Source: Candidatus Omnitrophota bacterium (lineage in GTDB: Bacteria > Omnitrophota > Gorgyraeia > JACQQV01). Taken from it: a DNA stretch of 64,000 nucleotides. Where the stretch lies: the NCBI GenBank assembly GCA_016206785.1, contig JACQQV010000028.1:5438-69437 (forward strand). The letters run 5' to 3'. This document shows, piece after piece, positions 1,261 through 64,000 of the stretch. The translations under genes and the position numbers were made by a program. The first letter of the stretch is position 1, and each line of letters starts with the position of its first letter. The notes beneath the pieces are model-generated. The model saw only the letters and a program-made list of their open reading frames with translations. It was not told the DNA's origin and did no database searches.

Positions 1261-2361
1261 ATGATGAGAATTCTACACGTTGTCGGTGCGCGTCCTAATT
1301 TCATGAAAATCGCACCCCTTCTTCCGGCATTCTCGAAATATCGGGGGGTGACCCAGTATCTCATCCATACGGGGCAGCATTACGACGATGAGATGTCGAA
1401 ACGGTTTTTCCTCGACCTGGATATCAAACCGCCCGACATTTTCCTGGGTGTGGGTTCTGGTTCACACGCGGAACAGACAGGGAAGATTATGATCGCTTTT
1501 GAAAAGGTGCTCTGCAGAGAAAAACCGGATTGGGTGGTCGTGATGGGCGATGTCAATTCAACACTCGCAGCGGCACTTGTCTGTGCAAAAGAAAGGGTTC
1601 GTCTTGCCCATGTGGAGGCCGGGCTTCGGAGCTTTGACAGAACGATGGCGGAAGAGGTCAACCGTATCGTAACCGATCGCCTGTCCAATGCACTTTTCAC
1701 GACCTCCGAAGAGGCCAATGAAAACCTGAAACGGGAAGGAATCTCCGAAGACAAAATATTTTTTGTCGGAAACATCATGATTGATTCCCTCGTGAGATTC
1801 CGTCAGAAAGCAGAAAATTCCCCTATTCTAAAGGATCTTCAGCTGGCACCCAAGACATATGCCGTGATGACGCTTCATCGGCCGACCAACGTCGATGAGG
1901 CGACCCCCCTTCGAAACATTACGCAGGCATTGAGGGAGCTCCAGCAGGAGATCCGCATTATTTTTCCTGTTCATCCCCGCTGCGCCAAGAACCTTGAGCG
2001 GTTAAACCTGAAAGGGGAGTTTTCCAAAATGAAAAATGTGACGCTTGTCAACCCGCTCGGCTATCTTGATTTCTTAAAACTCTCTTCCGCGTCCCTTTTT
2101 GTGATGACAGATTCCGGGGGCGTTCAAGAGGAAACTACATTTCTCGACGTCCCTTGTTTAACGTTGCGGGAGAATACGGAGCGGCCCGTCACCGTCACCC
2201 AGGGAACAAATGAAATCGTCGGAAATGATCCTGAGCGGATCGTCCGGATGAGCCGCCAGATCCTTCAAGGGAGAAGGAAGACCGGAAGAGTTCCCGATCT
2301 TTGGGACGGTCAGACCGCTGAGCGGATCGCCGCGATCCTTATGAATGGTAGCATCAAATGA
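1261..2361 (+). CDS. wecB: UDP-N-acetylglucosamine 2-epimerase (non-hydrolysing), WecB/MnaA family
   Basis: 366 aa; MRILHVVGARPNFMKIAPL...HTGQHYD...AHVEAGLRSFDRTMAEEVNR, the canonical UDP-GlcNAc 2-epimerase signatures. Confidence 0.9.
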   Translation: MMRILHVVGARPNFMKIAPLLPAFSKYRGVTQYLIHTGQHYDDEMSKRFFLDLDIKPPDIFLGVGSGSHAEQTGKIMIAFEKVLCREKPDWVVVMGDVNSTLAAALVCAKERVRLAHVEAGLRSFDRTMAEEVNRIVTDRLSNALFTTSEEANENLKREGISEDKIFFVGNIMIDSLVRFRQKAENSPILKDLQLAPKTYAVMTLHRPTNVDEATPLRNITQALRELQQEIRIIFPVHPRCAKNLERLNLKGEFSKMKNVTLVNPLGYLDFLKLSSASLFVMTDSGGVQEETTFLDVPCLTLRENTERPVTVTQGTNEIVGNDPERIVRMSRQILQGRRKTGRVPDLWDGQTAERIAAILMNGSIK

Positions 2362-3713
2362 CCAAACGGTTCACGAATATTCTCCTTTTTCTCCTTCTGC
2401 TTTCAGGGGGCTTGTTGGGGCTCGAGTGGATCGGCCCCTGGATCATCCTTCTGGGAGGAACTTTGATAGGTGGAGGAGTGATTGTGTGGAAGGTCCCCCC
2501 GGGAGAGAAGCGCTATGTGCTTGAAGTTTTTCTCGCCGCCGTTTTACTCCGCGTGTGTACGATTTTGCCTTTTTTCGTTCTCTCTTATACGGGTGTGGGA
2601 TTCCATCCCGGTTTCTTCTTCGCCTCAGACGGTTATGGATATCATGAAAACGGCTGGCAAATTGCACAGTTGTGGGAAAAAGGTCTTCTCATCACTCCCA
2701 AGTTACTCATCGGTTCATTCACAGGGACGATGCCCAGCCCCTATGAATTCTGGAATGCTTTTATCTATTCTTTCACCGGAAAAAGTCCTTTGTCTCTTTT
2801 CTTCGTGAACGCACTCGTTGGTGTATGGTCCTCCCTCTTTGTCTTCCTCTTTACAGAAAAGTTTTTTGGAAGAAGAGCTGCACGACTTGCGATGCTCTTT
2901 TCTGCCTTTTGGCCCTCTCTGCTCTTTTGGTCTATCCAGAATCTGCGTGATCCTATGGTCAATTTGGCCATTTTTCTTCTGATGTGGTCCGCCCTTGAAC
3001 TTCGTTACCGCTTGAGCGTTCGATTTATCTTCACAGGACTGATTTCGTCTTACGTTCTTTTCAAGTTCAGGATGCCCGTCTGTTTACTCATCCTTTTTCT
3101 CATCTTTATTTGGTTTTTAGGGACGAGTCAGTTCTACAGAAAGATGAAACTGCTTTTCATCGTTTTGCTCGTCTTTATCTCTGTAGCGCAAGGCCTGAAA
3201 TTCTGGAAGAACCTTGAGGGGGCGTTTAAGCAAAAGATGGCAAAGGCCAGTGTAGAAGCTTTTTATACCACAGATGTCTCTATTGCCCAGTGGGTCGATT
3301 ATCTCCGGACGGCCAGGGCAAGCGGAGGATCCGCATTTTTAAAGGGGGTTGATTTTACGAATCCCAAGCAGGCTATCGTTTATCTGCCCGCCGCGATGGG
3401 CTATGCCCTCTTTGCTCCCTTCCCATGGCAAGGGGGGAGCGGATCTTCTCTTCTGGGCGCCTTTGAGATGTCCATTCTTTACCTTTGCCTCCCTTTTATT
3501 CTGGGGGGGATTCGACATTCCCTGCGAGTGATGCGGGATCAGACTTTTCTCATCCTGCTCGTTTTCTCCTTTCTTTCCTTACTGTTGGCACTTATCGAAG
3601 GAAATGTTGGGACGCTCTTTCGACATCGTTCCATGATGCTCAGTTTCATCCTTATTTTTATAGCGGTGGGACTATCCCATCCCTCCAGAAAGGTTGCCCG
3701 TCAAAATGTCTGA
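2358..3713 (+). CDS. polytopic membrane protein, possibly a Wzy-like polymerase or O-antigen-ligase-like protein
   Basis: 451 aa with 10 or more hydrophobic helices and a large loop; no catalytic motif recognised; the call rests on context in the glycan cluster. Confidence 0.35.
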   Translation: MTKRFTNILLFLLLLSGGLLGLEWIGPWIILLGGTLIGGGVIVWKVPPGEKRYVLEVFLAAVLLRVCTILPFFVLSYTGVGFHPGFFFASDGYGYHENGWQIAQLWEKGLLITPKLLIGSFTGTMPSPYEFWNAFIYSFTGKSPLSLFFVNALVGVWSSLFVFLFTEKFFGRRAARLAMLFSAFWPSLLFWSIQNLRDPMVNLAIFLLMWSALELRYRLSVRFIFTGLISSYVLFKFRMPVCLLILFLIFIWFLGTSQFYRKMKLLFIVLLVFISVAQGLKFWKNLEGAFKQKMAKASVEAFYTTDVSIAQWVDYLRTARASGGSAFLKGVDFTNPKQAIVYLPAAMGYALFAPFPWQGGSGSSLLGAFEMSILYLCLPFILGGIRHSLRVMRDQTFLILLVFSFLSLLLALIEGNVGTLFRHRSMMLSFILIFIAVGLSHPSRKVARQNV

Positions 3714-7244: not shown

Positions 7245-8372
7245 ATGGGGATCCCGTACGTTGTCATCACGGCAGATTACGAACTCTTTTTCGGTTCGGA
7301 GACCGGAACGACAAAGAACTGTTTGATCGTTCCGACGGAAATGCTGAGGGAAACGCTTCGGAGGTTCGGCGCCAAAATGACGCTGTTCGTCGACATCTTA
7401 TATTACAAAAAATTGTGCGATGAAGGGCGACGCTATCCTCATCTTTTAGAAGAGGCGGGAGCGATCAAGAGACAGATACAGTCGTTGGCCAAAGAAGGTC
7501 ATGAAGTCGCACTCCACGTTCATCCGCACTGGCTCGATGCCAGGTATGAAGGGAATCATTGGGTTCTCCCGCTCCATCGGTACAGACTTCATCAGCTGAG
7601 TCAAGTAAAAGACCTTTCATTATGGGAGACGATCGCCGGCTGTTTCACCCTATCCCGGGAGCTTTTAGAGTCGATCGTACGAGAGACAGAAGCAGACTAC
7701 CGTATCGTCTCTTTCCGAGCGGGGGGCTTCTGTCTCCAGCCTTTCCGGGACGTTCGTGAGACAATGAAGTCAAATCATCTTTTGATCGATTCGAGCGTGT
7801 TTCCAGGAGGGAAATGCCATACCCATGAACTGGCATTTGATTTTCGAAATTGTCCCGGAAGACCTTTCTGGCGTTTTGAAGAAGAGGTCACCGAGGAGAG
7901 AGGGAATGGAACCTTTCTTGAAATTCCCATTACGGCAATTCCGGTCACCTCTTGGCGAAGGGTTTGCCATGCTCTGTTACGTCGTCAAGGAGGACCGTGG
8001 GTGCGCTACGGGAATGGAGAAACGATGGCGATTCGGGATGCATCGTTTCGAACACCCCGATGGAAACTTTTTGCCAAACCGTTTTCTACTTCTGCCACCT
8101 ACCTCAATTACGAAAGCATGACCTTTAAAGAAATGCTCTATCTCTTCAATCGGTATCTTTCCCGTTATGGGGGCGATGAAAGGGTACCGATTGTTTTCTT
8201 GGGTCATCCGAAAGCGATTTCGAAGCGTTCCCTCTGCGAACTGAGACGTTTCTTAAAGGAAATCACATCCTCTCAAAAAGGGGTTCTGACGACGTTAAGG
8301 GGATTTTATGGGGAGATCGCCGAAGATCCTCTTTCCTCTATCTCTCCGTATGCAGGAGTAACCATGCGATGA
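7245..8372 (+). CDS. hypothetical protein, possibly a divergent polysaccharide deacetylase / carbohydrate-esterase-like enzyme
   Basis: 375 aa; His-rich segment EGHEVALHVHPHW resembles the metal-binding region of CE4-type deacetylases, but the TFDDG motif is absent; the call is weak. Confidence 0.3.
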   Translation: MGIPYVVITADYELFFGSETGTTKNCLIVPTEMLRETLRRFGAKMTLFVDILYYKKLCDEGRRYPHLLEEAGAIKRQIQSLAKEGHEVALHVHPHWLDARYEGNHWVLPLHRYRLHQLSQVKDLSLWETIAGCFTLSRELLESIVRETEADYRIVSFRAGGFCLQPFRDVRETMKSNHLLIDSSVFPGGKCHTHELAFDFRNCPGRPFWRFEEEVTEERGNGTFLEIPITAIPVTSWRRVCHALLRRQGGPWVRYGNGETMAIRDASFRTPRWKLFAKPFSTSATYLNYESMTFKEMLYLFNRYLSRYGGDERVPIVFLGHPKAISKRSLCELRRFLKEITSSQKGVLTTLRGFYGEIAEDPLSSISPYAGVTMR

Positions 8373-38903: not shown

Positions 38904-39662
38904 ATGGGAAAAATTCCTTTGAGTGTTGTGATTCTGGCGAAGAATGAGGAGAGGGGGATCGCCGATGCCCTTCAAAGCGTCGCTTGGGCCGAGGACGTTG
39001 TGGTCATTGATGATATGAGTAACGACCGGACACCGGAGATCGCAAAACGCCACGGCGCCCGTGTCATTCAAAAGAGGATGGAACTTGAAGGAAAACACCG
39101 CAACGATGCCTATGCCCTTGCGAAACATGAATGGGTTCTTTCTCTGGACGCAGACGAAGAGGTTTCTCCCGCGCTTAAGGCGGAGATCGCAACGGTTTTA
39201 AGCGACGATACCTACGCCGGATATTCGATTCCGCTCCGGAATTATATCGGAGATCAGTGGGTTCGTCATGGCGGTTGGTATCCTGCGGGTAAACTCCGAT
39301 TGTTTCGGAAAGAGAAATTCCGCTATGAAGAGGTGGGGGTCCATCCACGGGCCTTCTGTGACGGAAAGGTGGGAACCCTGAAGGGAGACATCCTCCACAA
39401 GGGGTATCCTGATTTTGGTCACTTCTTGGAGAGTCTCAACCGCCAGACCACGTTGGAGGCGGAGAAATGGTTTCAAGACAAAAGAAAGATGAATTTTTTC
39501 CTCTCTTTCTACAGGGCACTCGACCGTTTCATCCGGACCTATTTTCTGAAGAGGGGATTTCTGGATGGTTTTATCGGGTTCATGGTAGCGCTTTTCGCGT
39601 TTCTGTATCAAATGATGAGCTATGCAAAGTATAGAGACTTAAAACGACGAGACAAACGGTGA
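38904..39662 (+). CDS. family 2 glycosyltransferase (WaaE/KdtX-like or ArnC-like)
   Basis: LSVVILAKNEERGI...VVVIDDMSNDRT...LSLDADEEV (DxD) with a C-terminal amphipathic or hydrophobic tail. Confidence 0.7.
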   Translation: MGKIPLSVVILAKNEERGIADALQSVAWAEDVVVIDDMSNDRTPEIAKRHGARVIQKRMELEGKHRNDAYALAKHEWVLSLDADEEVSPALKAEIATVLSDDTYAGYSIPLRNYIGDQWVRHGGWYPAGKLRLFRKEKFRYEEVGVHPRAFCDGKVGTLKGDILHKGYPDFGHFLESLNRQTTLEAEKWFQDKRKMNFFLSFYRALDRFIRTYFLKRGFLDGFIGFMVALFAFLYQMMSYAKYRDLKRRDKR

Positions 39663-41737
39663 TAACGGCATTGGGTCACGTACTTCTTTTTTCCGGGATG
39701 AACGCGATGGTCGCCGCAACGACTTTTACTCTGGCAAAGTCTCTCTTTTCTTTGAAGGGAGGGAGAGACCTTCTCCTCGCAAGTTTCCTTTTGTATTTGG
39801 CAGAGATCTTCACTGTGGAACTTTTCTGGAGCACCTGGAATCGGATGCGCCTCCTCCCCATTCTTGGGACCGTTTCCCTCCTTTTTCTAGTCACGATTCT
39901 TTTTGGGCGGAGAAAAGCGGAGTCTTCCATTTCCAAGGAGTTTCAAGAGTGTCTTGGATGGATCACTCGGAATCGCATACTTCTTTTCACGGCATCGGTC
40001 CTTTTAGGTTTTTTGGTTACCAAGGTCATTTACAACCTCCGATATCCGCCGCTTGGCTGGGATTCGATCGGCTACCACCTCGTTTTCCCCGTGGAGTGGT
40101 TGAAACGGGGGAGAATTTGGTTTTATCAAGTCGTTTTTTCCGATCCTTCCCCCTCTTATTATCCTTTTATGGGAGGCCTCTATTATTTCTGGCTTCTCCT
40201 CCCGTTCCGAAATGCTTTCATGGCAGACCTCGGCCAACTTCCGTTTTATCTGGCTCTTCTCCTCGCGACCTATGGATTTTCTCGACGGATCGGCCTCGAT
40301 CGAGAGATCTCTCTCTATGGAGCTTTTCTATTCGGCCTGATCCCCAATGTCTTAAAACAGGTGGAAATCAGTTATGTCGATTTAATCATCGCCTCTTACT
40401 TTATGAGTGCTCTCTATTTTCTCTCTCTTCTAAGCCGGGAATGGAATTTTTCCCACCTCTTCTTTGTCTCACTTGCTTCAGGACTTTTAATCGGTACGAA
40501 AACCCACGGTCTCCTATGGTTCGCCCTCCTCTGTCCCTATTTTTTGGGAGTCGCGGTCAAGCACTTCCGTCGAAAGGGGGAAACCTTCCTTTTATATGGA
40601 GCCACTCTCCTCGGCGTGATACTTCTTTTCGGAGGGTTGAGTTATATACGCAATTATCTTTTGACCCAAAACATCACATATCCGATCTCTCTTCAGATAG
40701 GCCCTTATTTGGCAAAAGGTATCATTTCCTATGCGGATTATCGCTATAATGCGCATGGCGCTTTCCGTTGGGAGGAATTTTACTTTCATAACGGATTGGG
40801 GGTACAGCTGTTGCTTCTCATCACACCGGGACTTTTTCTGGCCCTATGGATGGAATTTTGGAAGAAAAAAGCGGACCTTGAAAGGGTGTACTGGGTTTCT
40901 CTCCCTTTTTTAATCTTTCTCGTTTTTTTGTTCGTAAATCCCTTTCCGGGGAACGAGCGTTATATCTATCATGGTCTTGCCTTGGGTTGTGTCGTTGCTC
41001 TCTCCGTTTTTGATCGATTGTTTCCGAAAAAAGTCGTACGGATTTTTGTCTTGGTCTGCGTGCTCGGTTCCGCCGCAGAACTTGCAGGCCATTGGGAACT
41101 TTTCTTTTCGCTGCTGGGCGTGGGACTTTTCGTGGGATGGGGAGAGATGTATCGTCGGGGTTTCCTGAGCCGGCGCCTTTCCAAATGGCCGGTCGTTTCC
41201 CTTTGCTCCATACTCGGAATCGCTGCCTTAATTTTCCTAGAAATCCTGTATCGGCAAAACGAGTTTAACCTGTATCCCCGTAGTCAATTCTCAAATTATG
41301 ATACCCGTCTTGCTGAAGCATGGAAATGGGTAAATGAGCACACCTCTTTAACCGGCTCGAAAGTTGCTTATGCGGGTTCCTGCCTTCCTTTCCCCCTTTA
41401 TGGAACCGGTCTTAAAAATGACGTCTCTTATGTCACCGTAAATGGAATACCTCCCAATCTTCATCTTTGCGACGGAGATTACCGTCGGGGGGCACGCTAT
41501 GAAACGTGGGAGAGAATGCTTCTTGAAGGGAAGATAGACCTCCTCATTGTTTATGATATGGTCTACCGACGGAACCTACCTCCTTTTAATCCGCGAAGGG
41601 TTGGTGTGGAAGAATATCCGATCGGTGTTTTTCCGTTGGAGGATGAATGGGCGAGGAATCATCCCGAACGACTGAAACCTGTTTTTCAAAATGAAAGGGT
41701 CCATATTTATACTGTTCAGAAAGAAGGGTTGACATGA
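39659..41737 (+). CDS. large polytopic membrane protein, putative GT-C-fold (ArnT/PMT-like) glycosyltransferase
   Basis: 692 aa; about 12 TM helices followed by a soluble domain of about 150 aa; placed immediately after a GT2 polyprenyl-P-sugar-synthase-like gene, as in ArnC/ArnT pairs. Confidence 0.4.
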   Translation: MITALGHVLLFSGMNAMVAATTFTLAKSLFSLKGGRDLLLASFLLYLAEIFTVELFWSTWNRMRLLPILGTVSLLFLVTILFGRRKAESSISKEFQECLGWITRNRILLFTASVLLGFLVTKVIYNLRYPPLGWDSIGYHLVFPVEWLKRGRIWFYQVVFSDPSPSYYPFMGGLYYFWLLLPFRNAFMADLGQLPFYLALLLATYGFSRRIGLDREISLYGAFLFGLIPNVLKQVEISYVDLIIASYFMSALYFLSLLSREWNFSHLFFVSLASGLLIGTKTHGLLWFALLCPYFLGVAVKHFRRKGETFLLYGATLLGVILLFGGLSYIRNYLLTQNITYPISLQIGPYLAKGIISYADYRYNAHGAFRWEEFYFHNGLGVQLLLLITPGLFLALWMEFWKKKADLERVYWVSLPFLIFLVFLFVNPFPGNERYIYHGLALGCVVALSVFDRLFPKKVVRIFVLVCVLGSAAELAGHWELFFSLLGVGLFVGWGEMYRRGFLSRRLSKWPVVSLCSILGIAALIFLEILYRQNEFNLYPRSQFSNYDTRLAEAWKWVNEHTSLTGSKVAYAGSCLPFPLYGTGLKNDVSYVTVNGIPPNLHLCDGDYRRGARYETWERMLLEGKIDLLIVYDMVYRRNLPPFNPRRVGVEEYPIGVFPLEDEWARNHPERLKPVFQNERVHIYTVQKEGLT

Positions 41738-43343: not shown

Positions 43344-44461
43344 AAATCGTGATTGTCTATGCGTCGAGCGGGGCGGGTCATCAGAAATCCGCCGAGGCGC
43401 TTTTCAGAGTTGCCAAGGGACGACCAGGCCTCAGCGCCCTTCTCATCGATTCTCTCGATTATACAACACCTCTTTTCCATCTTCTCTATCCGAGGGCCTA
43501 TCTATTTCTCGTGAGATACCTTCCGACCGTGTGGGGATTTTTCTATGACGGACTCAACTTCGCCTTTATCGGCCACATCCTTAAATACCTTCGGCGGTTC
43601 CTCAATGCCATGAACGGAGGGGTCCTTGAGAAATTTTTCCTCTCCGAAAATCCGGATGTCATTGTCTCCACCCATTTTTTTGCAAGTGAGGTGGCCTCCA
43701 CCCTCAAGGAGAGGGGAAGACTTCATGCGCGGCTGTTTACGGTTGTGACGGATTTCAGCATTCATTCTGTCTGGGTCTCTCCCTTGACAGACGGATATGT
43801 GGTAGGTTCCAAGGATACGGAGGAGGCGCTTATCCGTCGGGGAGTTCCCAAAGAAACGATCTCTATCTTAGGAATTCCAATTGATCCTGTGTTTGAAAGG
43901 GAGGAGGATCGGGCGAATCTTTCACGGCAACTTGGCATCTTTCCTGAAAAATTCACTGTGCTTGTGGCGAGCGGCGGTTTCGGCGTCGGCCCGATTGAGA
44001 GTCTTGTCTCCCGGCTTTCCCGTGATGAGCGATTACAACTTTTGGTCGTCTGTGGCCACAACCGCCCCCTCTACAAACGCCTTACGGAAAGGACGGAAAG
44101 AATCAATCACCGTGTGAAACTCTTTGGATTCGTTCACAACATCCATGAACTGATGTCTGTAAGTGACTGCATGGTGAGTAAGTCGGGGGGGCTCACGATG
44201 TCCGAAGCCCTCGTCAAAAAACTCCCTTCCTTTATTCTTTATCCCATCCCGGGTCAAGAGACGGGGAATCGGGATGTCCTTGTCCGTCACCGAAGCGCCA
44301 TCACCGTGAGGAATATTCACGATCTTGAGAAGCGGTTTGAAGATCTTGACCGCCTTCAAGAGGAACTTGCGGGAGTGAGACGCCATATCGAGGCCTTCAG
44401 AAAAATCCAGGCAGCCCAACGCGTCATCGACCACGTCATTTCCAAAGAGGAAAAACGATGA
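43340..44461 (+). CDS. MGDG-synthase-like / processive diacylglycerol glycosyltransferase (GT28 family)
   Basis: MKIVIVYASSGAGHQKSAEAL N-terminal MGDG-synthase-type motif; C-terminal GT28 (MurG-like) region ...SKSGGLTMSEALVKKLPSFILYPIPGQE. Confidence 0.7.
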   Translation: MKIVIVYASSGAGHQKSAEALFRVAKGRPGLSALLIDSLDYTTPLFHLLYPRAYLFLVRYLPTVWGFFYDGLNFAFIGHILKYLRRFLNAMNGGVLEKFFLSENPDVIVSTHFFASEVASTLKERGRLHARLFTVVTDFSIHSVWVSPLTDGYVVGSKDTEEALIRRGVPKETISILGIPIDPVFEREEDRANLSRQLGIFPEKFTVLVASGGFGVGPIESLVSRLSRDERLQLLVVCGHNRPLYKRLTERTERINHRVKLFGFVHNIHELMSVSDCMVSKSGGLTMSEALVKKLPSFILYPIPGQETGNRDVLVRHRSAITVRNIHDLEKRFEDLDRLQEELAGVRRHIEAFRKIQAAQRVIDHVISKEEKR

Positions 44462-45168
44462 ACCCTGCTCTTCAAGAAGAACTTCGTAAACTCAGGCGTT
44501 CTTTGCAAGGTTTCCTTGAAGCCGAGAAGGGTTTCGGTGTGGAGGCGGTGATGGGAAAAGGGGTTGGCCGCGAGAAGAACGTTATGCACAGCGTTGTCTC
44601 TTTAGACAGGAATCTTGAGCCTCTCCGGCAAGAAGTTTCCGTCTGCATCAAATGTCCCCTTCATCAAGGTCGGCGGCAGACCGTTTTTGGAGAAGGATCT
44701 CCCAGCGCAAAACTCATGTTCGTCGGTGAAGCACCTGGAAGCGAAGAAGATCAACAGGGCCGGCCCTTCGTGGGGCAGGCAGGGAAACTTCTTACCAAAA
44801 TCATCGAGGCGATCGGCCTCAAACGGGAAGACGTCTATATTGCAAATATTATTAAGTGCCGTCCTCCTGGAAACAGGGCCCCTCTTCCTGAAGAGATTCA
44901 TTCCTGTGAACCGTATCTGGTGAGGCAGATTGAGTTCATTCGCCCAAGACTTATTTGCGCTCTCGGAAAATATGCGGCGATGGTCCTCGTTCGAAAGGAG
45001 GAATCGATCTCCCTTCTCCGCGGAAATTTCTACGATTATCAGGGAATTCCTGTGATGCCGACCTTTCACCCTGCCTACCTTCTAAGAAATCCCTCCGCCA
45101 AGAGACTCGTCTGGGAAGATATGAAGAAACTAAAGACCACCCTTGAGAAGTTGGAAACATCACCGTGA
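44458..45168 (+). CDS. uracil-DNA glycosylase, family 4 (4Fe-4S type)
   Basis: CIKCPLH...GEGSPSAKLMFVGEAPG...IIKCRPPGNR...HPAYLLR motifs. Confidence 0.85.
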   Translation: MNPALQEELRKLRRSLQGFLEAEKGFGVEAVMGKGVGREKNVMHSVVSLDRNLEPLRQEVSVCIKCPLHQGRRQTVFGEGSPSAKLMFVGEAPGSEEDQQGRPFVGQAGKLLTKIIEAIGLKREDVYIANIIKCRPPGNRAPLPEEIHSCEPYLVRQIEFIRPRLICALGKYAAMVLVRKEESISLLRGNFYDYQGIPVMPTFHPAYLLRNPSAKRLVWEDMKKLKTTLEKLETSP

Positions 45169-47156
45169 AAAAGGGTCTTCTCTATGCACAGGTCGTTCTT
45201 CCGCTTCCACTCGATCGCTCTTTTGACTACCTCATCCCTTCTTCCTTAATGAAGAAGGTCGGCATCGGAAAGCGGGTACGGGTTCCTTTCGGAAAAGAGG
45301 GGAAGGTGGGTTACATCGTCGGGTTTTCGTCAAGGAGCCCTCTTCCCCCGAAATCGGTCAAGCCCCTGGGTATGGTGATCGATGAGGAACCGCTCCTCGA
45401 CGAACGGCTTTTCGAACTCTCCAAGAGACTGCGCGATTATTATCTCTGTTCGTGGGGGGAAGCGCTTGAAGCGATGCTCCCGACCTCTCTTTTACCTCGC
45501 AAAAGGGGAATTCCCTTCTCCTCGGTCATGGAAGGTCCTCTCGAAACGGTCCCCTCTTTGAATGAAGAACAAAAGCGCTCCTTCCAGGAGATCGTCTCAC
45601 ATGTTGCCCAGGAAAGACCCGCCACCTTTCTTCTGGTGGGTCCAGAGGGAAGCGGTAAGATGGAACTGACCCTTCAGGTCATTCGCACCTGTCTCGAGAA
45701 AGAGCGCTCGAGCATCGTTCTTTTTCCTGAAATTTCTCTTCTCCGTAGAGAAGAGGAACGCTTTCGACGGCGGTTCGGAGAAAAAGTCTGTTCGCTTCAC
45801 AGCCAACTCTCTCCATTGAAGCGCTACGAGATCTGGATGTCCCTCAAAAAAGGGAATGGCCGTGTCGTGTTGGGGGTCCGTTCCGCCGTTTTTAGCCCTG
45901 TCCAACAGCTAGGGCTCATCGTTCTTTATGAAGAAGGTGATTCCAGTTACAAGCAGGAAGAATCCCCCCGTTATCATGCAAGACAGATTGCCTTGATGCG
46001 GTCAGAACTTGAAGGGTGCTCCATTCTTCTTGAAAGTTCGGTTCCATCGCTTGAGTCGTATGCCGAGGTGGAAAGGGGACGCTATGTTCTTTTGAGACTT
46101 TCGCGTACCTTTCCAGAGAAACATCCCCCCAGCATCCGTATTGTCGACATGCGGGAAGAGCTGCGCGATCAAAAGAGAAAGGTTCTTTTTTCAAAGGAAC
46201 TTGAACGAAAAATCGCGGAAGTGCTTAAAGAAAAAGGACAGGTCCTCCTTTTTTTAAACCGTCGTGGTTTTTCGACCTTCATTCACTGCCGTAAGTGCGG
46301 CTCGACCCTTCGCTGTCCCAACTGCAGCATTTCCTTGAAATACCATTTTGAGCCAAAGCGTCTCATCTGCCATTACTGCAATGTCCAGGAGAAAGCTCCT
46401 GAAATTTGTCCTGCCTGCCGGGAGAGTTATCTTCAATATTCAGGAGTAGGGACCGAGCGTGTGGAGAGCGAAATTCACCGTCTTTTCCCTGAGGCGCGGA
46501 TCGGCCGGCTGGATGCGGATGTTGCAAAAAGCGCGCGCTCGCAAGAGGAGGCGCTGACCTCGTTCCGTCGCGGAGAGGTCGATCTTCTCGTCGGGACACA
46601 GATGGTGGTGAGAGAACTGGTTCCCCAAGGGATACCCCTCGTTGGCATTCTTTCCGCAGACACCCTTCTGAATAGACCCGATTTTCGCTCTGCGGAGAGG
46701 ACTTTCGGTGTGCTCTCCCGTCTCATGAGTCAGGCGGCGAGAGCGGAGGGGACGGGGGAGGTGATCATTCAGACCTTCTCGCCGGAAAAGATCGCCTTTC
46801 TGGCAGATACTTCCCAGGATTACTCCGCTTTTTACCAGGAAGAGATCCGCTCCAGGAAGGAGCTCGGCTTTCCCCCTTTCGGTTTTCTGACCCAGATGAC
46901 CTTTTCGGGAAAAAAGGAAGAAAAGGTCACTTCTCTCTCCAACTCGTTTAAAAAATCTCTCAATCGTCTTAAGCAAAAGAAGAGACTCGCCCTCCTCGGT
47001 CCTGCACCGTGCCTCGTTTACCAGTTGAAGGGGGAATATCGGTGGCAGCTTCTCATCAAGTCTGAGAAACCGATCGGTGAGTCTCTCAGGAAAATCCTTA
47101 AACGTTCGCAGGAAAGCCGGGCCGTTAAAATTACAGTCGACGTGGATCCGCTATGA
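45165..47156 (+). CDS. priA: primosomal protein N' (PriA) homolog with degenerate helicase motifs
   Basis: N-terminal 3'-DNA-binding region; Cys-rich zinc-binding insert CRKCGSTLRCPNCSISLKYHFEPKRLICHYCN...CPACRE. Motif I reads GPEGSGKM (canonical GxTGSGKT); motif II reads IVLYEEGDSSYKQ (canonical IVIDEEHDSSYKQ); motif VI reads QAARAEGTG (canonical QVAGRAGR). Confidence 0.8.
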   Translation: MKKGLLYAQVVLPLPLDRSFDYLIPSSLMKKVGIGKRVRVPFGKEGKVGYIVGFSSRSPLPPKSVKPLGMVIDEEPLLDERLFELSKRLRDYYLCSWGEALEAMLPTSLLPRKRGIPFSSVMEGPLETVPSLNEEQKRSFQEIVSHVAQERPATFLLVGPEGSGKMELTLQVIRTCLEKERSSIVLFPEISLLRREEERFRRRFGEKVCSLHSQLSPLKRYEIWMSLKKGNGRVVLGVRSAVFSPVQQLGLIVLYEEGDSSYKQEESPRYHARQIALMRSELEGCSILLESSVPSLESYAEVERGRYVLLRLSRTFPEKHPPSIRIVDMREELRDQKRKVLFSKELERKIAEVLKEKGQVLLFLNRRGFSTFIHCRKCGSTLRCPNCSISLKYHFEPKRLICHYCNVQEKAPEICPACRESYLQYSGVGTERVESEIHRLFPEARIGRLDADVAKSARSQEEALTSFRRGEVDLLVGTQMVVRELVPQGIPLVGILSADTLLNRPDFRSAERTFGVLSRLMSQAARAEGTGEVIIQTFSPEKIAFLADTSQDYSAFYQEEIRSRKELGFPPFGFLTQMTFSGKKEEKVTSLSNSFKKSLNRLKQKKRLALLGPAPCLVYQLKGEYRWQLLIKSEKPIGESLRKILKRSQESRAVKITVDVDPL

Positions 47157-48088
47157 AAATTATTTTCTTTGGAACATCCGATTTCGCCATTCCGTCCCTT
47201 GAGGTACTTCTCCGTTCGGGGCATGATCTTGTGTCCGTTGTCACACAGCCGGATAAACCGGGCGGTCGGAACCGAGAGCTTCTTCAGGGTCCGGTGAAAC
47301 AGTGGGCGAGTGCCGCCTCCCTCCCGACCCTGCAACCGGAGGAACTCTCCGATTTTTCTTTCATGATGGGGCTTAAGAAAATGAGCCCTGAACTTTTCGT
47401 GGTTGTCTCCTATGGAAAAATTCTCCCACCTTTTCTGCTCGCGCTTCCACCGCACGGGGCGATCAACGTCCATCCCTCCCTCCTTCCCAAATACCGCGGT
47501 GCCAGCCCGATCCCTTGGGCCATTTTAAATGGCGACTCCAAAACAGGGATCTCCATTCTTCGGATGACGGAGAAGGTTGACGCGGGAGAAATTCTCCTGC
47601 AAAAGGAAGTGGGGATCGGAAAAGAAGAAGACGCCTCCCAACTTTCAAAGAGACTTTCAGCGCTGGGGGGCGAACTTCTTCTGGAGCTGCTTCGCAAGAT
47701 TGAGAAGGGGGAAGTGGAGGCTTTTCCTCAAAAGGGGGTAGTGACTTTTGCCCCCCGATTTAAAAAGGAGGAAGGACGGATCGATTGGAGGAGAAGCGCT
47801 GAAGAACTTTCTCGTCAAATCCGAGCGCTTGTTCCATGGCCCGGCAGTTTTACCCTTCTTCATGGAAAGCGGTGGGTCGTCTGGAAAGGGAAAGCGATCG
47901 GGGAGAAGAGAGAAGGGAAACCGGGTGAGATCGTCGGACTTGGCCCTGAAGGCATTGCCGTGGCAACGGGAAAGGGGAAACTTCTTCTGGAAGAAATTCA
48001 GCTGGAGGGAAAGGAAAAGATGAAAAGCGGCTCCTTTCTCCTGGGCCATCCCCTTCGTCTGGGTGAAACTTTTTCTTGTAATCCTTGA
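47153..48088 (+). CDS. fmt: methionyl-tRNA formyltransferase
   Basis: MKIIFFGTSDFAIPSLEVLL...VVTQPDKPGGRN...HPSLLPKYRGASPI, canonical Fmt. Confidence 0.9.
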   Translation: MKIIFFGTSDFAIPSLEVLLRSGHDLVSVVTQPDKPGGRNRELLQGPVKQWASAASLPTLQPEELSDFSFMMGLKKMSPELFVVVSYGKILPPFLLALPPHGAINVHPSLLPKYRGASPIPWAILNGDSKTGISILRMTEKVDAGEILLQKEVGIGKEEDASQLSKRLSALGGELLLELLRKIEKGEVEAFPQKGVVTFAPRFKKEEGRIDWRRSAEELSRQIRALVPWPGSFTLLHGKRWVVWKGKAIGEKREGKPGEIVGLGPEGIAVATGKGKLLLEEIQLEGKEKMKSGSFLLGHPLRLGETFSCNP

Positions 48089-48103: not shown

Positions 48104-49175
48104 TAAAAAACGTCTTATTTTTCCTAACATTGTCTGAATAGGTCAGTTATGCCAGAATTAAGAAAGGATCCGGTCGTCGGCCGTTGGATGATTATCGCTA
48201 CGGAACGGTCAAAACGGCCGACCGATTTTGAAGGAGGTCACACGCAGCCCCAAGAGGAAGGTCCCTGCCCTTTTTGCCAAGGGCATGAATCGGAGACCCC
48301 TCCTGAAATCTTCTCATTGCGTCAGCCCGGCACAAAACCGGATAGCCCAGGTTGGGATGTGCGAGTGGTTTCCAACGTCTCTCCCATTCTTCGAATCGAA
48401 GGGGACATCCAGCGACGGGCAAAGGGGATGTATGACACGATGCATGGCCTCGGAGCCCACGAGGTCATCATTGAGACACCTCACCATGCCCGGAACATGG
48501 CGGACCTTGAAAGGGCCCAGATTGCCAAAGTCCTGACCGCCTATGCCCAACGTCTCAATGACCTCGACAGGGATCCCCGTTTCAAATACGTTCTGATCTT
48601 CAAAAATCATGGGCTCGCCGCCGGAGGGGGAGATATCCTCCATACCCGCTCGCAGTTGATCGCCATGGCGGTCAACCCGAAACTCATTAAGGAAGAGTTG
48701 TTGGGTGCCCACCGCTATTTTGATTACCGGGAACGGTGCATCTTCTGCGATATCATCCAGCAGGAACTGGAAACAGGGGAACGGATTGTAGCGGAAACAG
48801 ATACGATGGTCGGTTTCTGTCCTTATGCCTCGCCCTTCCCATTTGAAATGTGGGTCCTTCCCAAGCGCCACAGCCCCGACTTCGGGAAAATTTCTGAAGT
48901 GGAAAAATGGGACATGGCGTCGGTCTTGAAGACGGCCCTTTCCAAACTGTCCCAAGCGCTCCAGGACCCTCCTTATAATTATGTCCTGCACACCGCTCCC
49001 TTCCGTCGGGAAAAGTTGGGATATTGGAAAACGATTGAGGAAGATTTTCACTGGCACCTGGAGATTATGCCGCGACTGACGAAGGTTGCCGGCTTTGAAT
49101 GGGGATCGGGGGTCTACATCAACCCGACGCCGCCGGAAGAGGCGGCTGCGTATTTGAGGAAACTGGAGACAACGG

Positions 49176-51243
<2,068 letters not shown>

Positions 51244-60073: not shown

Positions 60074-63000
60074 CTATTTTAACCTAGAGATCGTCTGCTG
60101 TATCATCGGTGTCGTAGCAGCTTTTTGTGCCCACTCCGCAGCCTTTATTAAGTGCCGAGAGGTACTTCCTATGGCGATCTGAGCAGCCAACCCTAAACCG
60201 TAGACTAGTGCTGGATTGCTCGTTGCCAAAGCGTAGAGACCATATCCTCCCAATCCTGCCACACTTAGCGCACCTACACCTACAAGACCATAACTGGCAT
60301 AATAACCGGCATAACCAACATAACCCATCTGTTCTTCTGTTAGAAGCTGAGAAGTGTAGCCAGTTGGTGATGCAGTAAGCACCTCCCCATAACGCCTACG
60401 AGGAGGTTGCCAAGCGTATGATGACACTGTCTGTATTGTCCTAAAAGTCGGCCTTCGCCGATACGACCTTCGCCGAGATGGCCTTCTTACCCTACCATAT
60501 CCCTTTCTAGGTTTCTTTGACTTCAGACCTAGCGTGTCCGTATTATTCTGTGGATTGTTTCCTACATAAGTATATCCATTGCCGTAATTCACAGAATCTT
60601 GCCACATCCCTTCGGGGTCGCGCTGGAGGAAGCGGCCGGTTGATGGTTCATAGTACCGATTCTTAAAATACAGCAGGCCTGATTCGGGATCGGAGCGTTG
60701 ACCGGTGAAGCGGTAGCGGTTGCCGGTCGGTGTGGTGGTTGATACGACAGCACTACCATAGGCGTCGTAGTCGTACCGTTCAGCGACGACACCGCTCGCA
60801 TCAGTGATTGCCTCCACATGCTGGAGTGGGTTCTGGTGGTAGAAGAAAGTTTCGTTTGACTCGAAGGCGCCATTTCCACTAAGGTCCTGCTTGGTCTGGA
60901 GGTGGTGATCATCGCCTAGACCGTCGACATACTGGGCTTTCAATTGGCCAGCTCCATCACGCTCCTCGATCACCGACCAGCGGTTGTAGAAGTAAAGCCG
61001 GGTTTCATTGACTCCACCCAAGCCTTGAACATTACGGAACACGCGGCGATTCTCCGTGTCGTAGACGTACTTGGCGAACTTGCTTGAATCGGACTTGTCC
61101 TCAATGCGGACGATGCGGTTGTGCACGTCGTAGGTATACGTCCGGGTACCGTCATCCTTGAGATTACCGTTTGCATCATACGTACGGGCGGAGGCGCCGA
61201 CTGTAGTGTAGGCGTTCACGGCATTCGGGGCAAGGGTGGTCGTGGTAAGGGATCCGCCCGCAGGCTGGTCACCCACGCTGCGCCAGTTCTGCGCGCCGTC
61301 GAGCGTCCAGCTTTTCTGCCGTTCGGTGTAGGTGGTAATGGCCGGGTTAGCAAGTTGGTTGTTGACGATGGCAGTAAATTCGCTGCTTAAGCCGGGAACA
61401 TGGAACGAGGACTGCGTCAGGCGCGAGAGCGAGTCATAAGCGAAGATATCGGCCTGTTGGTCACCTTCATGACTAAACTGCTCGTACAATCGGTCACCGG
61501 TTCGATTGTAAGCGTAACGGAGATCGACGACTACGGTACCGGATCGGTCATGGTGGTACCGGATGGGTCGTCGGTCACCGTCATACGTCAAGGCGAGGGA
61601 AACACCGTTTGTAGAGACGTAGTTCTGTGCGAGCGGACGGGTAGGTCCCATGTAGTTGAAAGTGGCGATGTCATTAGCCGGGTCGCTATCAGGAACGATC
61701 AGGTTTCCGGTTCCCGTGCCCGGACCCTCTTCAATCAGGGTCACCCGATCTAACCCATCGAACCCGCGAGTAATCTTCCGGCCATCTGGGTATGTAAGCT
61801 GAATCAGCCGGCCGTCTTGATTGTATTCGTAAGTTACCGTTCTTGCAGGGTCGGCGTTGAGGTTCTGCGTCTGTGAGGTAAGGCGCGAAAGCGAGTCGTA
61901 CGTCGAGGTCACGTAGGCATCGTCGTCCTCTGGGGACCCATCGGAATTATTGGAGAAGGTGACTCTTGATAACCCGTCGAACTGCCAATGATTATTGTGA
62001 ATGCCACTGACGCCCGACCCGAACGTGGTCACCTCTTCATCGATTTTTCTCCCGAGATCGTCGTAGCCTGTGGTGGCCGGACTCGATCGCACTGAACCGT
62101 TGGGGTCGGTGATCTGCGTGACATGATCATCGCGGTCGTAGACATACTGATAGGTGGTATCATCAGCGAAACGCTCAGTCACCAACCGGTTGAGGTCATC
62201 GTAGACGTAGGTCGTTGTGCTGCGCGCTGTGGCGTCGAGCGGATCGTCGTCATCGGTGCGGGACACCACGCGGGAATTCGGATCGAAGTCGTAATCCACC
62301 TGAACTTTGCCGTCCGGATTGTGCGGATTGGACAGATCGAGCGCAGCCCCGCCGATGCCGCCCTCCCTGAGGTCGTAGATTCCCCGGACGAGACGGTTGA
62401 GACCGTCGTACACCTTAGTGACACTATTTCCATCGCTATTGATATCGGTAAAACCGACAGGCGTGGAGCTGAACGGAAAACGATAATTCACATTAGACAC
62501 CGTATCGAGGACCAGAGGTCCTCGGGCATCCGAGGTAAAGACGGCGTTGCCCCGGGAGTCATACTTCGTCCGTGTGGTGTTACCAAGGTTATCGGTTTCG
62601 CGGATCTTGCGGTTGACTGCATCATAAAGTGATACACGCGTGTAGGTCTCATCCGGTGCAGTTGTGGGGGAACGTTCCACTTCGACAATTTGAATCACGT
62701 TTCCATTATCGTCATAGATCGTGGAGCGTTCATTCTGTACGGTGCCCCCTCCGGATTTTGGCAAGGGTTGATCAAGTGTTATTACGACACGGTCAAGACC
62801 GTCATAATGAGTCTCGTTCATATCTCCATCTGGTTCTATCGTGCGAAACAGTTTACTGTTACGATTAAAATGAGAATGGGTGACGTACTCTGAAACTTGA
62901 GGATCATTGGTAGGACCCGGCGTACGAAAATACGCCTGTCGCGCACGGAAGGGGCGATTGAGCTCATCCTCATCTGTATTCGATTCGGACAACCTTTTAT

Positions 63001-64000
63001 TGACTACGCGATCACCCGGAACTCCACGGGTATTGGACCCCACCGGCCCAAACTGAAGGGTTTGGATGCGGTTGTTCTCCGGATCATAATGAGACTCTGA
63101 TTCATACCCCATCGCATCCACCACTCGTATGAGCCGATCATTGCCATCATAAGTATTCGTGGTAACATCACCGCCTTCGGCGTTGGCCTGACCGTTATCT
63201 TCAGCATCAATAGAGGTGATAAGGTTCTTATTGCCATCGTAATTCTTTGTCGAGGTGGCGGTGCTGCTTGTCGTCGAGAACTGGGTGATGTCGATATTCT
63301 CATGGGCCTTACCGCTGGCGTGAAGTGCAATGAACACTGCGTCAATCCCGCCGCGCGATTCTTTGAATAGGAGATTCCGCTCGTCAAACACAGTCGCTGT
63401 GATATTGTTCGGCTGCCGTTCGGGATTACCGCCCGGGAGCGTTGCCACCGGGCTAACCGTGAGTACCCGGTTCTGATTTTTATCATAGGCATACAAAGTA
63501 GTGATCGATTCGGTCGGGCCAACTTCGCCATTACTCACTTCGCGAACCTCGGCGATCTGTTTATCGAGAATATCATATTCCTTGGTGGTGGTTAGAAATG
63601 GATTGGCTATTACGGATTGGTTATTCTCGTCGTTATTCTCCACATCCTCCTGAATGAGGTTGTCATTCGCGTCGTAGAAGAGCACCCGTTCGTAGTTCAA
63701 ACTGGATAAAACATTGTTCGGCTCTTCACCATTTTCGTTGAACGAGGCCCCGACCACACCGGTGGTTTCCCGGATGAGTTGATTGAGCGAATTGATTTCG
63801 TAGGTAGTAGTAATCCCACGGCCGTCCGTCACGGATGTCACATTCCCGACCCGATCATACGTGTACGATTCTTTGGCATTTACATATTCCGCAGTACGGC
63901 TTCGTCGGCTCGTACCGGCGTTTGTGATCGGACTTGCTAAGGTAGGATCATGATCATGGATGACCCTCCGTTTGTAGCCACCCGTTGAGGGATCTGCTCC
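60074..64000 (-). CDS. RHS/YD-repeat polymorphic toxin (N-terminus off-window) with unrecognised C-terminal toxin domain
   Basis: The minus-strand frame is open to the window edge with no stop between 63842 and 64000. Dozens of YD repeats are present (YDxxGNxxxxxD, e.g. YDANGNLKDDGTRTYTYDVHNRIVRIED). The RHS core ...LLYFKNRYYEPSTGRFLQRDPEGMW...NPQNNTDTLGL ends in the DPxGL-type cleavage motif. After it come about 190 aa, KSKKPRKGYGRVRRPSRRRSYRRRP... then GYVGYAGYYASYGLVGVGALSVAGLGGYGLYALA... Confidence 0.9.
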   Translation of the reverse strand, partial: GADPSTGGYKRRVIHDHDPTLASPITNAGTSRRSRTAEYVNAKESYTYDRVGNVTSVTDGRGITTTYEINSLNQLIRETTGVVGASFNENGEEPNNVLSSLNYERVLFYDANDNLIQEDVENNDENNQSVIANPFLTTTKEYDILDKQIAEVREVSNGEVGPTESITTLYAYDKNQNRVLTVSPVATLPGGNPERQPNNITATVFDERNLLFKESRGGIDAVFIALHASGKAHENIDITQFSTTSSTATSTKNYDGNKNLITSIDAEDNGQANAEGGDVTTNTYDGNDRLIRVVDAMGYESESHYDPENNRIQTLQFGPVGSNTRGVPGDRVVNKRLSESNTDEDELNRPFRARQAYFRTPGPTNDPQVSEYVTHSHFNRNSKLFRTIEPDGDMNETHYDGLDRVVITLDQPLPKSGGGTVQNERSTIYDDNGNVIQIVEVERSPTTAPDETYTRVSLYDAVNRKIRETDNLGNTTRTKYDSRGNAVFTSDARGPLVLDTVSNVNYRFPFSSTPVGFTDINSDGNSVTKVYDGLNRLVRGIYDLREGGIGGAALDLSNPHNPDGKVQVDYDFDPNSRVVSRTDDDDPLDATARSTTTYVYDDLNRLVTERFADDTTYQYVYDRDDHVTQITDPNGSVRSSPATTGYDDLGRKIDEEVTTFGSGVSGIHNNHWQFDGLSRVTFSNNSDGSPEDDDAYVTSTYDSLSRLTSQTQNLNADPARTVTYEYNQDGRLIQLTYPDGRKITRGFDGLDRVTLIEEGPGTGTGNLIVPDSDPANDIATFNYMGPTRPLAQNYVSTNGVSLALTYDGDRRPIRYHHDRSGTVVVDLRYAYNRTGDRLYEQFSHEGDQQADIFAYDSLSRLTQSSFHVPGLSSEFTAIVNNQLANPAITTYTERQKSWTLDGAQNWRSVGDQPAGGSLTTTTLAPNAVNAYTTVGASARTYDANGNLKDDGTRTYTYDVHNRIVRIEDKSDSSKFAKYVYDTENRRVFRNVQGLGGVNETRLYFYNRWSVIEERDGAGQLKAQYVDGLGDDHHLQTKQDLSGNGAFESNETFFYHQNPLQHVEAITDASGVVAERYDYDAYGSAVVSTTTPTGNRYRFTGQRSDPESGLLYFKNRYYEPSTGRFLQRDPEGMWQDSVNYGNGYTYVGNNPQNNTDTLGLKSKKPRKGYGRVRRPSRRRSYRRRPTFRTIQTVSSYAWQPPRRRYGEVLTASPTGYTSQLLTEEQMGYVGYAGYYASYGLVGVGALSVAGLGGYGLYALATSNPALVYGLGLAAQIAIGSTSRHLIKAAEWAQKAATTPMIQQTISRLK

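Follow-up and report, generated by a model that had tools for sequence, protein, structure and literature searches.

The priA locus and its product

The subject of this analysis is a gene coding for a PriA-family protein (45165..47156, + strand) in a 64,000-nucleotide stretch of the genome of a Candidatus Omnitrophota bacterium (assembly GCA_016206785.1, contig JACQQV010000028.1, positions 5,438 to 69,437), hereafter the window, to which all coordinates given without a locus label refer. PriA is the central replication-restart initiator of bacteria, and the version in the window, a 663-aa open reading frame (ORF) with a GTG start and matches to the PriA family, is a predicted pseudohelicase. 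Its start overlaps by 4 nt (GTGA) with the stop codon of a translationally coupled upstream gene of the uracil-DNA-glycosylase (UDG) family (44458..45168, + strand; PF03167:UDG is detected in the same sequence in locus L089), and its stop codon overlaps by 4 nt (ATGA) with the ATG of the downstream gene fmt, coding for methionyl-tRNA formyltransferase (47153..48088, + strand; Formyl_trans_N/C in L089 and all related loci). In the close relatives of this protein, which we term clade A (see below), the gene order is always HAD phosphatase, MGDG-synthase-like, UDG, priA, fmt, galT, gap, pgk, tpi, and secG. In sister Omnitrophota with canonical versions of the protein, priA lies in the same context, viz., HAD, MGDG synthase, UDG, priA, (def), and fmt, and the UDG-priA adjacency is common to clade A, the canonical sisters, and further degenerate lineages. 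This shared locus indicates that the window PriA is a positional ortholog and probably the native PriA of its genome. No second PriA-like ORF is found within the 64-kb window, which also lacks genes for DnaB, a loader, SSB, another helicase, or any other replication protein.

The protein scores 543.1 bits against the NCBIfam model TIGR00595 (cutoff 230.35; residues 156–663) and falls under the cutoffs of the stricter PRK05580 sub-models (e.g., 690.8 against 813). Pfam detects the 3′-DNA-end-binding domain (3′BD; PF17764, E=4e-29), the Cys-rich region (CRR; PF18319, E=5e-10), and the PriA C-terminal domain (CTD; PF18074, E=1e-19); the generic helicase models are weak, with ResIII and Helicase_C barely over their cutoffs and DEAD under its own. 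The top sequence match among solved structures is the Klebsiella pneumoniae PriA (4NL4, E=3e-111), and an identical public protein (P0001) is annotated as 'primosomal protein N' [Candidatus Omnitrophica bacterium]'. An AlphaFold (AF2) model (pLDDT 86.9, pTM 0.87) displays the two-lobe RecA-like core fold of the superfamily 2 (SF2) helicases, and with it Foldseek retrieves the fork-bound PriA 8FAK_H (E=7e-59, TM 0.81), 4NL4 (TM 0.81), and, also among the best matches, 6DCR_A, an E. coli construct with the winged-helix (WH) domain deleted (TM 0.80/0.83). Full-length identity to the solved canonical PriAs is 30–34%, at TM 0.80–0.81. An earlier note on this DNA, made from the letters of the window, had claimed homology to PriA along the full length of the protein, zinc insert included, and these Pfam, TIGR00595, 4NL4, and AF2-based matches bear it out.

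A further feature, which that note had not mentioned, is the absence of the WH domain: in its place is a 26-aa linker (45483..45560, + strand), as indicated by the alignment, the pLDDT, and the 6DCR match. Query residues 111–133 lie opposite residues 121–215 of the Klebsiella chain, with ~26 residues between the 3′BD and helicase lobe 1 versus ~93 in Klebsiella, and the pLDDT falls below 50 at residues 109–117. The WH domain is also absent from the canonical Omnitrophota PriAs (median 667 aa), and its absence is thus unrelated to the loss of motifs described below; it is likewise absent from 39 of 150 representatives at 50% identity and is therefore no universal feature of PriA. On homology and predicted fold, the window protein is a PriA by descent and architecture, if not a catalytically canonical one.

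Degeneration of the helicase motifs

A homology search recovered 11 closest full-length cluster representatives and a partial one, at 54–100% identity, or 54–76% once the identical protein is set aside, from Omnitrophota metagenomes in NCBI, ENA, JGI, and Logan. Most of these are without precomputed DEAD and ResIII calls, and every match at or below 46% identity has both. Degenerate motifs are seen in all 12 of the close relatives in the alignment, and the remaining 108 aligned proteins, here the canonical set, display GITASGKT, DEEHE, GSATP, KGLDFP, and QVAGRAGRG at the corresponding positions. The 11 full-length proteins, which are intact ORFs of 660–666 aa, are monophyletic in 50/50 and 100/100 neighbor-joining (NJ) bootstraps and constitute clade A.

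The motifs were read from a residue-by-residue alignment to the solved Klebsiella PriA and the 108 canonical sister proteins; all coordinates that follow are on the + strand. In SF2 helicases, the Walker A Thr and Walker B Asp coordinate Mg2+, the arginines of motif VI contact the gamma-phosphate, and contacts to the translocating strand are made through motifs Ia and V. Motif I (Walker A, 45639..45662) reads GPEGSGKM against the canonical GITASGKT: the Walker Lys (K165) is kept, as in 10/11 members of clade A, and the adjacent Thr is replaced (T166M) at a position occupied by Thr in 108/108 canonical proteins and by M in four, T in four, I in one, and other residues in the rest of clade A. 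Motif II (Walker B, 45927..45941) reads YEEGD against DEEHE/D. Its Asp (D255Y) is kept in 0/11 clade A members (F in four, C in four, Y in two, and T in one) versus 108/108 canonical ones, and its His (H258G) in 2/11 versus 107/108. Both strings, with the Thr-to-Met change in the former and the departure from DEEHD in the latter, match the earlier note exactly. Motif VI (46719..46742) reads RLMSQAAR against QVAGRAGR, i.e., the Gln has become Arg, the first Arg has become Gln (Q523), both glycines are gone, and the second Arg (R526) is present; across clade A, Q519 is kept in 1/11, G522 in 4/11, G525 in 0/11, and R526 in 6/11, with R523 changed to Gln in 9–10 of the 11. The conclusion of the earlier note that this motif is lost therefore stands, but the string it had quoted was four residues out of register.

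Three additional lesions had escaped that note. Motif Ia (45726..45752) reads PEISLLRRE against PEISLTPQT, with T193, P194, and Q195 lost in clade A and the Pro and Gln kept in none of the 11. Motif III (46032..46046) is ESSVP against GSATP, the Gly-to-Glu change (G290E) being fixed in 11/11 clade A proteins at a position with Gly in 108/108 canonical ones. Motif V (46596..46628) is half-degenerate, TQMVVRELVPQ against TQMIAKGLDFP: in clade A the TQ(M) is kept, Arg replaces K483 in 9/11, no member has G484, D486, or P488, and a single one of the 11 has F487. None of the SF2 motifs I (GxGKT), II (DExH), and VI (QxxGRxGR) is thus intact in the window protein, and alignment-based inspection found no canonical GxGKT or DExH at any other place in it; the motifs had not been mis-assigned.

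Retention of the DNA-binding, zinc, and C-terminal modules

The regions outside the motor present the opposite picture. The 3′BD (aa 9–106; 45189..45482) is intact: none of its 12 canonical-conserved columns is lost in clade A, and its pocket residues F20, D21, Y22, G43, and K66, equivalent to F16, D17, Y18, G37, and K61 of E. coli, are each invariant in 11/11 members. In E. coli, D17, Y18, G37, and K61 of this pocket bind the nascent 3′ end. Motif Ib (RSAVFSP; 45879..45899), with R239, S240, A241, F243, and P245, is retained with 0/6 conserved columns lost, as are the aromatic-rich loop (ARL; YKQEESPRYHAR; 45948..45983; 0/7 lost), which contacts the fork junction in E. coli PriA (PMC5175346), and motif IV (FLNRRGF; 46251..46271; 0/9 lost), which is invariant in both clade A and the canonical proteins. 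The CRR (46287..46418) has all eight zinc-ligand cysteines of its two Zn sites (C375, C378, C384, C387, C402, C405, C415, and C418), and these are invariant in 11/11 clade A, 120/120 clade B (a second degenerate clade described below), and 108/108 canonical proteins, as well as in all 12 of the degenerate representatives from the broader survey. The CTD (aa 571–662; 46875..47150) is likewise intact.

The pocket Asp D21 (45225–45227; E. coli D17) was considered as a compensatory fixation in pseudohelicases, as it is Asp in 11/11 clade A and 116/116 clade B proteins and H, T, or S in 108/108 canonical Omnitrophota sisters. This was rejected on broader panels: the position has T in 22, D in 13, and H in five proteins from other phyla, and Asp occurs in 4/12 degenerate versus 24/85 canonical representatives (p=0.74).

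Two residues of the old ATP pocket also stand out. The position of K165 (45657–45659), Lys in nearly all of clade A as noted above, is Arg or Lys in 117/120 clade B proteins, and E257 (45933–45935), the second Glu of DEEH, is invariant in clade A, clade B, and the canonical proteins. Their conservation amid drifting motif residues suggests a retained non-catalytic role for the pocket, which may be residual nucleotide binding or a salt bridge.

A lineage trait under purifying selection

To compare domains at matched divergence, conservation was computed for clade A and for canonical proteins with nearly the same mean identity (0.58 and 0.59, respectively). Helicase lobe 1 (0.55 versus 0.66) and lobe 2b (0.58 versus 0.73) are less conserved in clade A, and the 3′BD (0.607 versus 0.504), the motif IV region (0.70 versus 0.56), and the CTD (0.570 versus 0.466) are more so. 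Of the 178 columns at least 95% conserved in the canonical proteins, clade A keeps 117, loses 32, and has switched seven to a new fixed residue, including G290E (11/11) and R523Q (10/11). Counting as lost any column whose ancestral residue is kept in at most 5/11 members, the losses fall in 30/50 conserved columns of motifs Q, I, Ia, II, III, V, and VI versus 9/128 elsewhere (odds ratio ~20, p=3e-13), with none in the 3′BD, motif Ib, the ARL, motif IV, or the CRR. The motif substitutions are far beyond chance expectation, as the residues concerned are invariant in all 108 canonical Omnitrophota PriAs, in 79/80 proteins of a multi-phylum panel, and in 138/150 representatives at 50% identity.

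The ratio of nonsynonymous to synonymous substitution rates (dN/dS) between P0001 and P0002 is 0.127 overall and 0.09–0.15 in every domain, both helicase lobes included (dS 1.19); this is the only usable pair, with dS infinite for P0001-P0008 and P0008-P0010 and 1.8–2.8 for the rest. The orthologs carry the same substitutions, which are therefore a lineage trait and not local decay, the alternative that the earlier note had left to an ortholog comparison. The pattern of columns and rates indicates that the chemistry of the motor is released from selection, with the fold and the DNA-recognition elements still constrained.

Clade B and other degenerate versions of PriA

To place clade A in a wider context, we used a multi-phylum panel of 80 PriAs of at most 43% identity, chosen on patterns outside the ATPase motifs and including no clade A genome, and typed the motifs in the best 150 representatives (at 50% identity) of an exhaustive PriA profile search. 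The catalytic residues are canonical in 79/80 proteins of the former and 138/150 of the latter. The sole exception in the panel, from another Omnitrophota metagenome-assembled genome (MAG), led to a second group, which we termed clade B (P0121–P0240; L037:2125-3975, + strand, with other loci at L088:8001-9866, L090:6001-7854, and L091:6001-7845). It is much larger than clade A, with at least 120 clusters, and probably more, at 58–98% identity, all of the same degenerate type, and its members, with a median of 615 aa, are ~50 aa shorter. Their Walker A region reads D-L-D-G-x-A-R-W, with the Lys replaced by Arg (in 111 of the 120 listed) and the Thr by Trp. A deletion has removed motif VI, and motifs Ia and V are lost too; motif II persists in the form DEEQD, and motif III still has its Gly. 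They retain the 3′BD, the YKQ of the ARL, and the eight zinc cysteines, and are encoded at the same position as clade A, in the order HAD-MGDG synthase-priA-fmt-galT-gap. In one clade B genome a 126-aa gene of the bAvd/23S_rRNA_IVP four-helix-bundle family (L088:9910-10290, + strand) lies between priA and fmt. This family includes an accessory protein of diversity-generating retroelements.

Of the 12 degenerate proteins in this set of 150, 11 belong to its 39 members of less than 700 aa, and all 12 keep the YKQ and the 3′BD Tyr and Lys/Arg, in addition to the cysteines. Ten of these are further representatives with partial or complete motif losses (P0241, P0242, P0246, P0249, P0268, P0269, P0274, P0292, P0318, and P0369). 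In P0268 and P0318, Walker A and B are still present and the losses affect motifs Ia and VI, and P0246, with GSGKM and YEEHD, resembles the window PriA; versions with partial losses may be snapshots of stepwise decay. Two of the degenerate representatives that could be placed in context (L092:7001-9007, which encodes P0246, and L093:7001-9013) show the UDG-priA(-fmt) adjacency. On the P0246 contig, a CODH/acetyl-CoA synthase (Wood-Ljungdahl) cluster (L092:144-6313, + strand) lies directly upstream of UDG-priA, which offers a hint at the metabolism of that lineage. The description of this PriA state as uncommon in the earlier note thus holds across bacteria at large and fails within the Omnitrophota-like PriA subfamily, in which such forms are common.

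The number of losses behind this distribution allows two readings. The PriA NJ tree clusters the degenerate lineages together and joins clades A and B with a support of 100% when all columns are used, 74% after masking of the relaxed columns, and 39% when the CRR and CTD are taken by themselves. A single loss shared by the two clades is opposed by the near absence of shared derived residues, by star-like pairwise identities, and by the trees of the flanking genes, in which the grouping receives 0% (fmt) and 2% (MGDG-synthase). Long-branch or relaxation attraction is likely to contribute to the grouping in the PriA tree, and both one ancient loss and several independent losses stand as readings. 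Besides clade A and the larger clade B, no fewer than eight other lineages at 50% identity have different combinations of dead motifs. We put forward tentatively, with a little less than even confidence, that a helicase-dead PriA recurs, and may even predominate, throughout a large radiation made up of Omnitrophota and allied lineages whose PriAs have no WH domain.

Functional interpretation and alternatives

We consider it quite probable that the window gene is the native PriA of this organism, a positional ortholog turned pseudohelicase that would recognize forks and not unwind them. It would most likely be the second natural example, after Deinococcus, of a PriA serving only as a scaffold for fork recognition and loading. 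The proposal of the earlier note, viz., a helicase-inactive PriA with retained DNA-binding and zinc modules, agrees with every sequence-level test that was run, and the Deinococcus radiodurans PriA, which that note had not cited, furnishes an experimental precedent. The sequences show that the ancestor of clade A lost the residues for Mg-ATP binding and hydrolysis, with the Walker B Asp going to an aromatic residue or Cys, the first Arg of motif VI to Gln, and the Gly of motif III to Glu, along with those that couple hydrolysis to translocation on single-stranded DNA (ssDNA), namely the TPQ of motif Ia and the G-x-D-F-P of motif V. The rest of the P-loop then drifted separately in each descendant, with the two RecA-like lobes kept by purifying selection as a folded scaffold. 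The invariance of the DNA-recognition residues in clade A points to a protein that would still recognize abandoned forks, with the 3′BD pocket taking the 3′ end of the nascent leading strand and the ARL and CRR positioned at the junction, and that would scaffold the reloading of DnaB without ATP-driven unwinding. Like the D. radiodurans PriA and E. coli PriA K230R, it would not itself unwind the duplex lagging-strand arm.

Certain points weigh against this interpretation. The role as a primosome-loading platform would be an extrapolation, and no equivalents of a DnaB loader, PriB, DnaT, or DnaD were assigned. The dS is near saturation even in the closest pair, P0001/P0002. Further, the window PriA keeps a near-intact P-loop (G-x-x-G-x-G-K), E256/E257, and the second Arg of motif VI; given these, and the selection on K165 and E257, it may still bind nucleotide, and even hydrolyze it slowly.

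This last point leads to the best surviving alternative, in which the protein is no motor but a switch that binds ATP/ADP, or hydrolyzes ATP very slowly, to gate a conformational change such as movement of the CRR. Both the window PriA and P0002 keep G159-x-x-G162-x-G164-K165, K165 persists across clade A despite its drifting neighbors and E257 in all the groups compared, and the Walker Lys position is still basic in clade B and Deinococcus-Thermus, in which it is occupied by Arg. However, most members of clade A are without recognizable P-loop glycines (e.g., GGTSEEKQ, EGGSDDKT, and GELGTDPM), and nucleotide binding is thus not the conserved function of the clade; moreover, none of the 11 has the Walker B Asp, seven are without the Mg-ligand Thr and ten without the first Arg of motif VI, and the D. 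radiodurans PriA has no measurable ATPase activity (PMC4504706). We accordingly regard such a switch as unlikely.

Less likely still is that the window copy is a redundant paralog, spare or drifting to some other DNA-binding role, with a canonical PriA elsewhere in the genome. The copy count does rest on 64 kb of genome, within which there is no second PriA. Nevertheless, the window gene sits at the exact locus of the canonical Omnitrophota PriA, as do clade B and the further degenerate lineages. PriA is normally a single-copy gene, and a second copy elsewhere in this genome is unlikely. The Deinococcus pseudohelicase, too, is described as the organism's own PriA (PMC4504706). Finally, a pseudogene or a sequencing or assembly artefact in one MAG, for which nothing more speaks than the degenerate motifs themselves, is highly improbable and is refuted by the clade-wide lesions in cluster representatives from different projects, the conservation of 117/178 canonical-conserved columns including every zinc ligand, and the dN/dS of 0.13, besides the intact ORF, the confident fold prediction, and the recovery of an identical protein from an NCBI MAG and an independent Logan assembly.

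Other features of the window and related loci

Downstream of fmt, the window carries tandem overlapping paralogs of the galactose-1-phosphate uridylyltransferase/HIT-like family (48149–49210 and 49176–50189, + strand); clade B and some canonical loci also have both of these galT-like genes, and some clade A relatives have one. The region 128–43343 (+ strand) is a ~43-kb near-uninterrupted run of genes, all on one strand, for the synthesis of surface polysaccharides or glycoconjugates, comprising many glycosyltransferases of the GT1, GT2, and GT4 families, methyltransferases, two asparagine-synthase-like amidotransferases, a carbamoyltransferase, a UDP-GlcNAc 2-epimerase, a UDP-glucose dehydrogenase, a flippase, and PMT_2, with several ORFs without a Pfam match (2358–3713, 7245–8372, and 39659–41737). 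The window also encodes glycolysis genes, an Opp transporter, and a 1255-aa RHS-repeat protein (60074–63841, − strand), the only long minus-strand gene among the annotated ORFs of a window that otherwise reads on the plus strand, which may be a gene for toxin delivery or contact-dependent competition. In the contig of another clade A member (P0008), the upstream sugar cluster includes a 798-aa NAD-dependent epimerase with an intein (PF14890; L002:3236-5632, + strand), whose 347-aa ortholog in L003 has no intein.

Implications

It is an open question why the helicase motifs of PriA are so widely conserved when E. coli can do without them. A second phylum with the motor disabled by evolution, perhaps repeatedly, and with the 3′-end pocket, ARL, zinc region, and CTD strictly preserved, amounts to a natural separation-of-function series that shows which parts of PriA are indispensable. 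As live and dead orthologs occupy the same locus in sister genomes, they are candidates for biochemical comparison, and such pairs, together with the recurrence in Omnitrophota, make the purpose of the helicase activity more tractable. There is also a caution for automated annotation: proteins of this type go under the names 'primosomal protein N'' and 'replication restart helicase' and are almost certainly non-unwinding. If helicase-dead PriA is indeed recurrent, restart in these ultra-small bacteria would routinely proceed without PriA-driven unwinding, the evolutionarily indispensable function of PriA would be fork recognition and scaffolding of the helicase loader, and the residual selection on the Walker Lys/Arg and E257 would reflect a retained non-catalytic role of the ATP pocket.

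Comparison with known PriA proteins

With the canonical PriAs of known structure (4NL4, 6DGD, and 8FAK), the window protein shares the 3′BD, two RecA lobes with the inserted CRR, and the CTD, along with the fmt neighborhood. Unlike them, it has the catalytic residues of motifs I, Ia, II, III, V, and VI replaced and no WH domain, in the latter respect resembling the 6DCR construct. The E. coli mutant priA300 (K230R), with its ATPase, helicase, and translocase activities abolished, supports restart in vivo and in vitro, although neither the PriA-PriC pathway nor Mu transposition works with helicase-dead PriA (PMC5778457). The K230R and K230A/D variants have a dead ATP site, as is predicted for the window protein, and still assemble primosomes and support restart (PMC5778457; PMC4504706), which makes them the functional model of the capacities left to a natural pseudohelicase; they are, however, engineered single changes in an intact motor, whereas the window PriA has six degenerate motifs fixed by evolution.

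The closest parallel is the PriA pseudohelicase of Deinococcus-Thermus, a concept set out in 2015 (Lopper, Boone & Morrow; PMC4504706). The D. radiodurans protein has degenerate Walker boxes, no measurable ATPase activity, and ~4% unwinding, binds ssDNA (215 nM) and forks (108 nM) near the levels of E. coli PriA, and interacts with DnaB (PMC4504706). Like it, the window PriA is full-length, with a conserved DNA-binding domain and CRR, and degenerate Walker A and B motifs that are lineage-wide; the properties predicted for it, viz., neither ATPase activity nor unwinding, with fork binding and a scaffold role kept, correspond to those measured in D. radiodurans. The Omnitrophota PriAs also differ from that of Deinococcus in being without a WH domain. 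The Walker A signature of Deinococcus-Thermus is a Lys-to-Arg change in GKT, whereas the window PriA, like most of clade A, keeps K165, and its own lesions, viz., Thr to Met in Walker A, Asp to Tyr in Walker B, Gly to Glu in motif III, and Arg to Gln in motif VI, are unlike those of Deinococcus. The retention of K165 with loss of the Asp, Thr, and Arg implies a different molecular route to the same state, and in a tree without Deinococcus sequences the window clade groups with the Omnitrophota PriAs (94% bootstrap; 70% with relaxed columns masked). This placement and the synteny shared with the Omnitrophota indicate that the pseudohelicase state of the window PriA arose independently of Deinococcus. 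Clade B, which shares with clade A the phylum, the locus, and the retained 3′BD, ARL, and cysteines, has different and more radical lesions, and its Walker Lys-to-Arg change resembles those of Deinococcus-Thermus and priA300. Within the library searched, no paper mentions PriA together with Omnitrophota or Omnitrophica. Given the Deinococcus-Thermus precedent, the phenomenon itself will not surprise the specialist; what the alignments, trees, and gene neighborhoods add is an independent case in Omnitrophota, and the breadth and recurrence of the state in this group.

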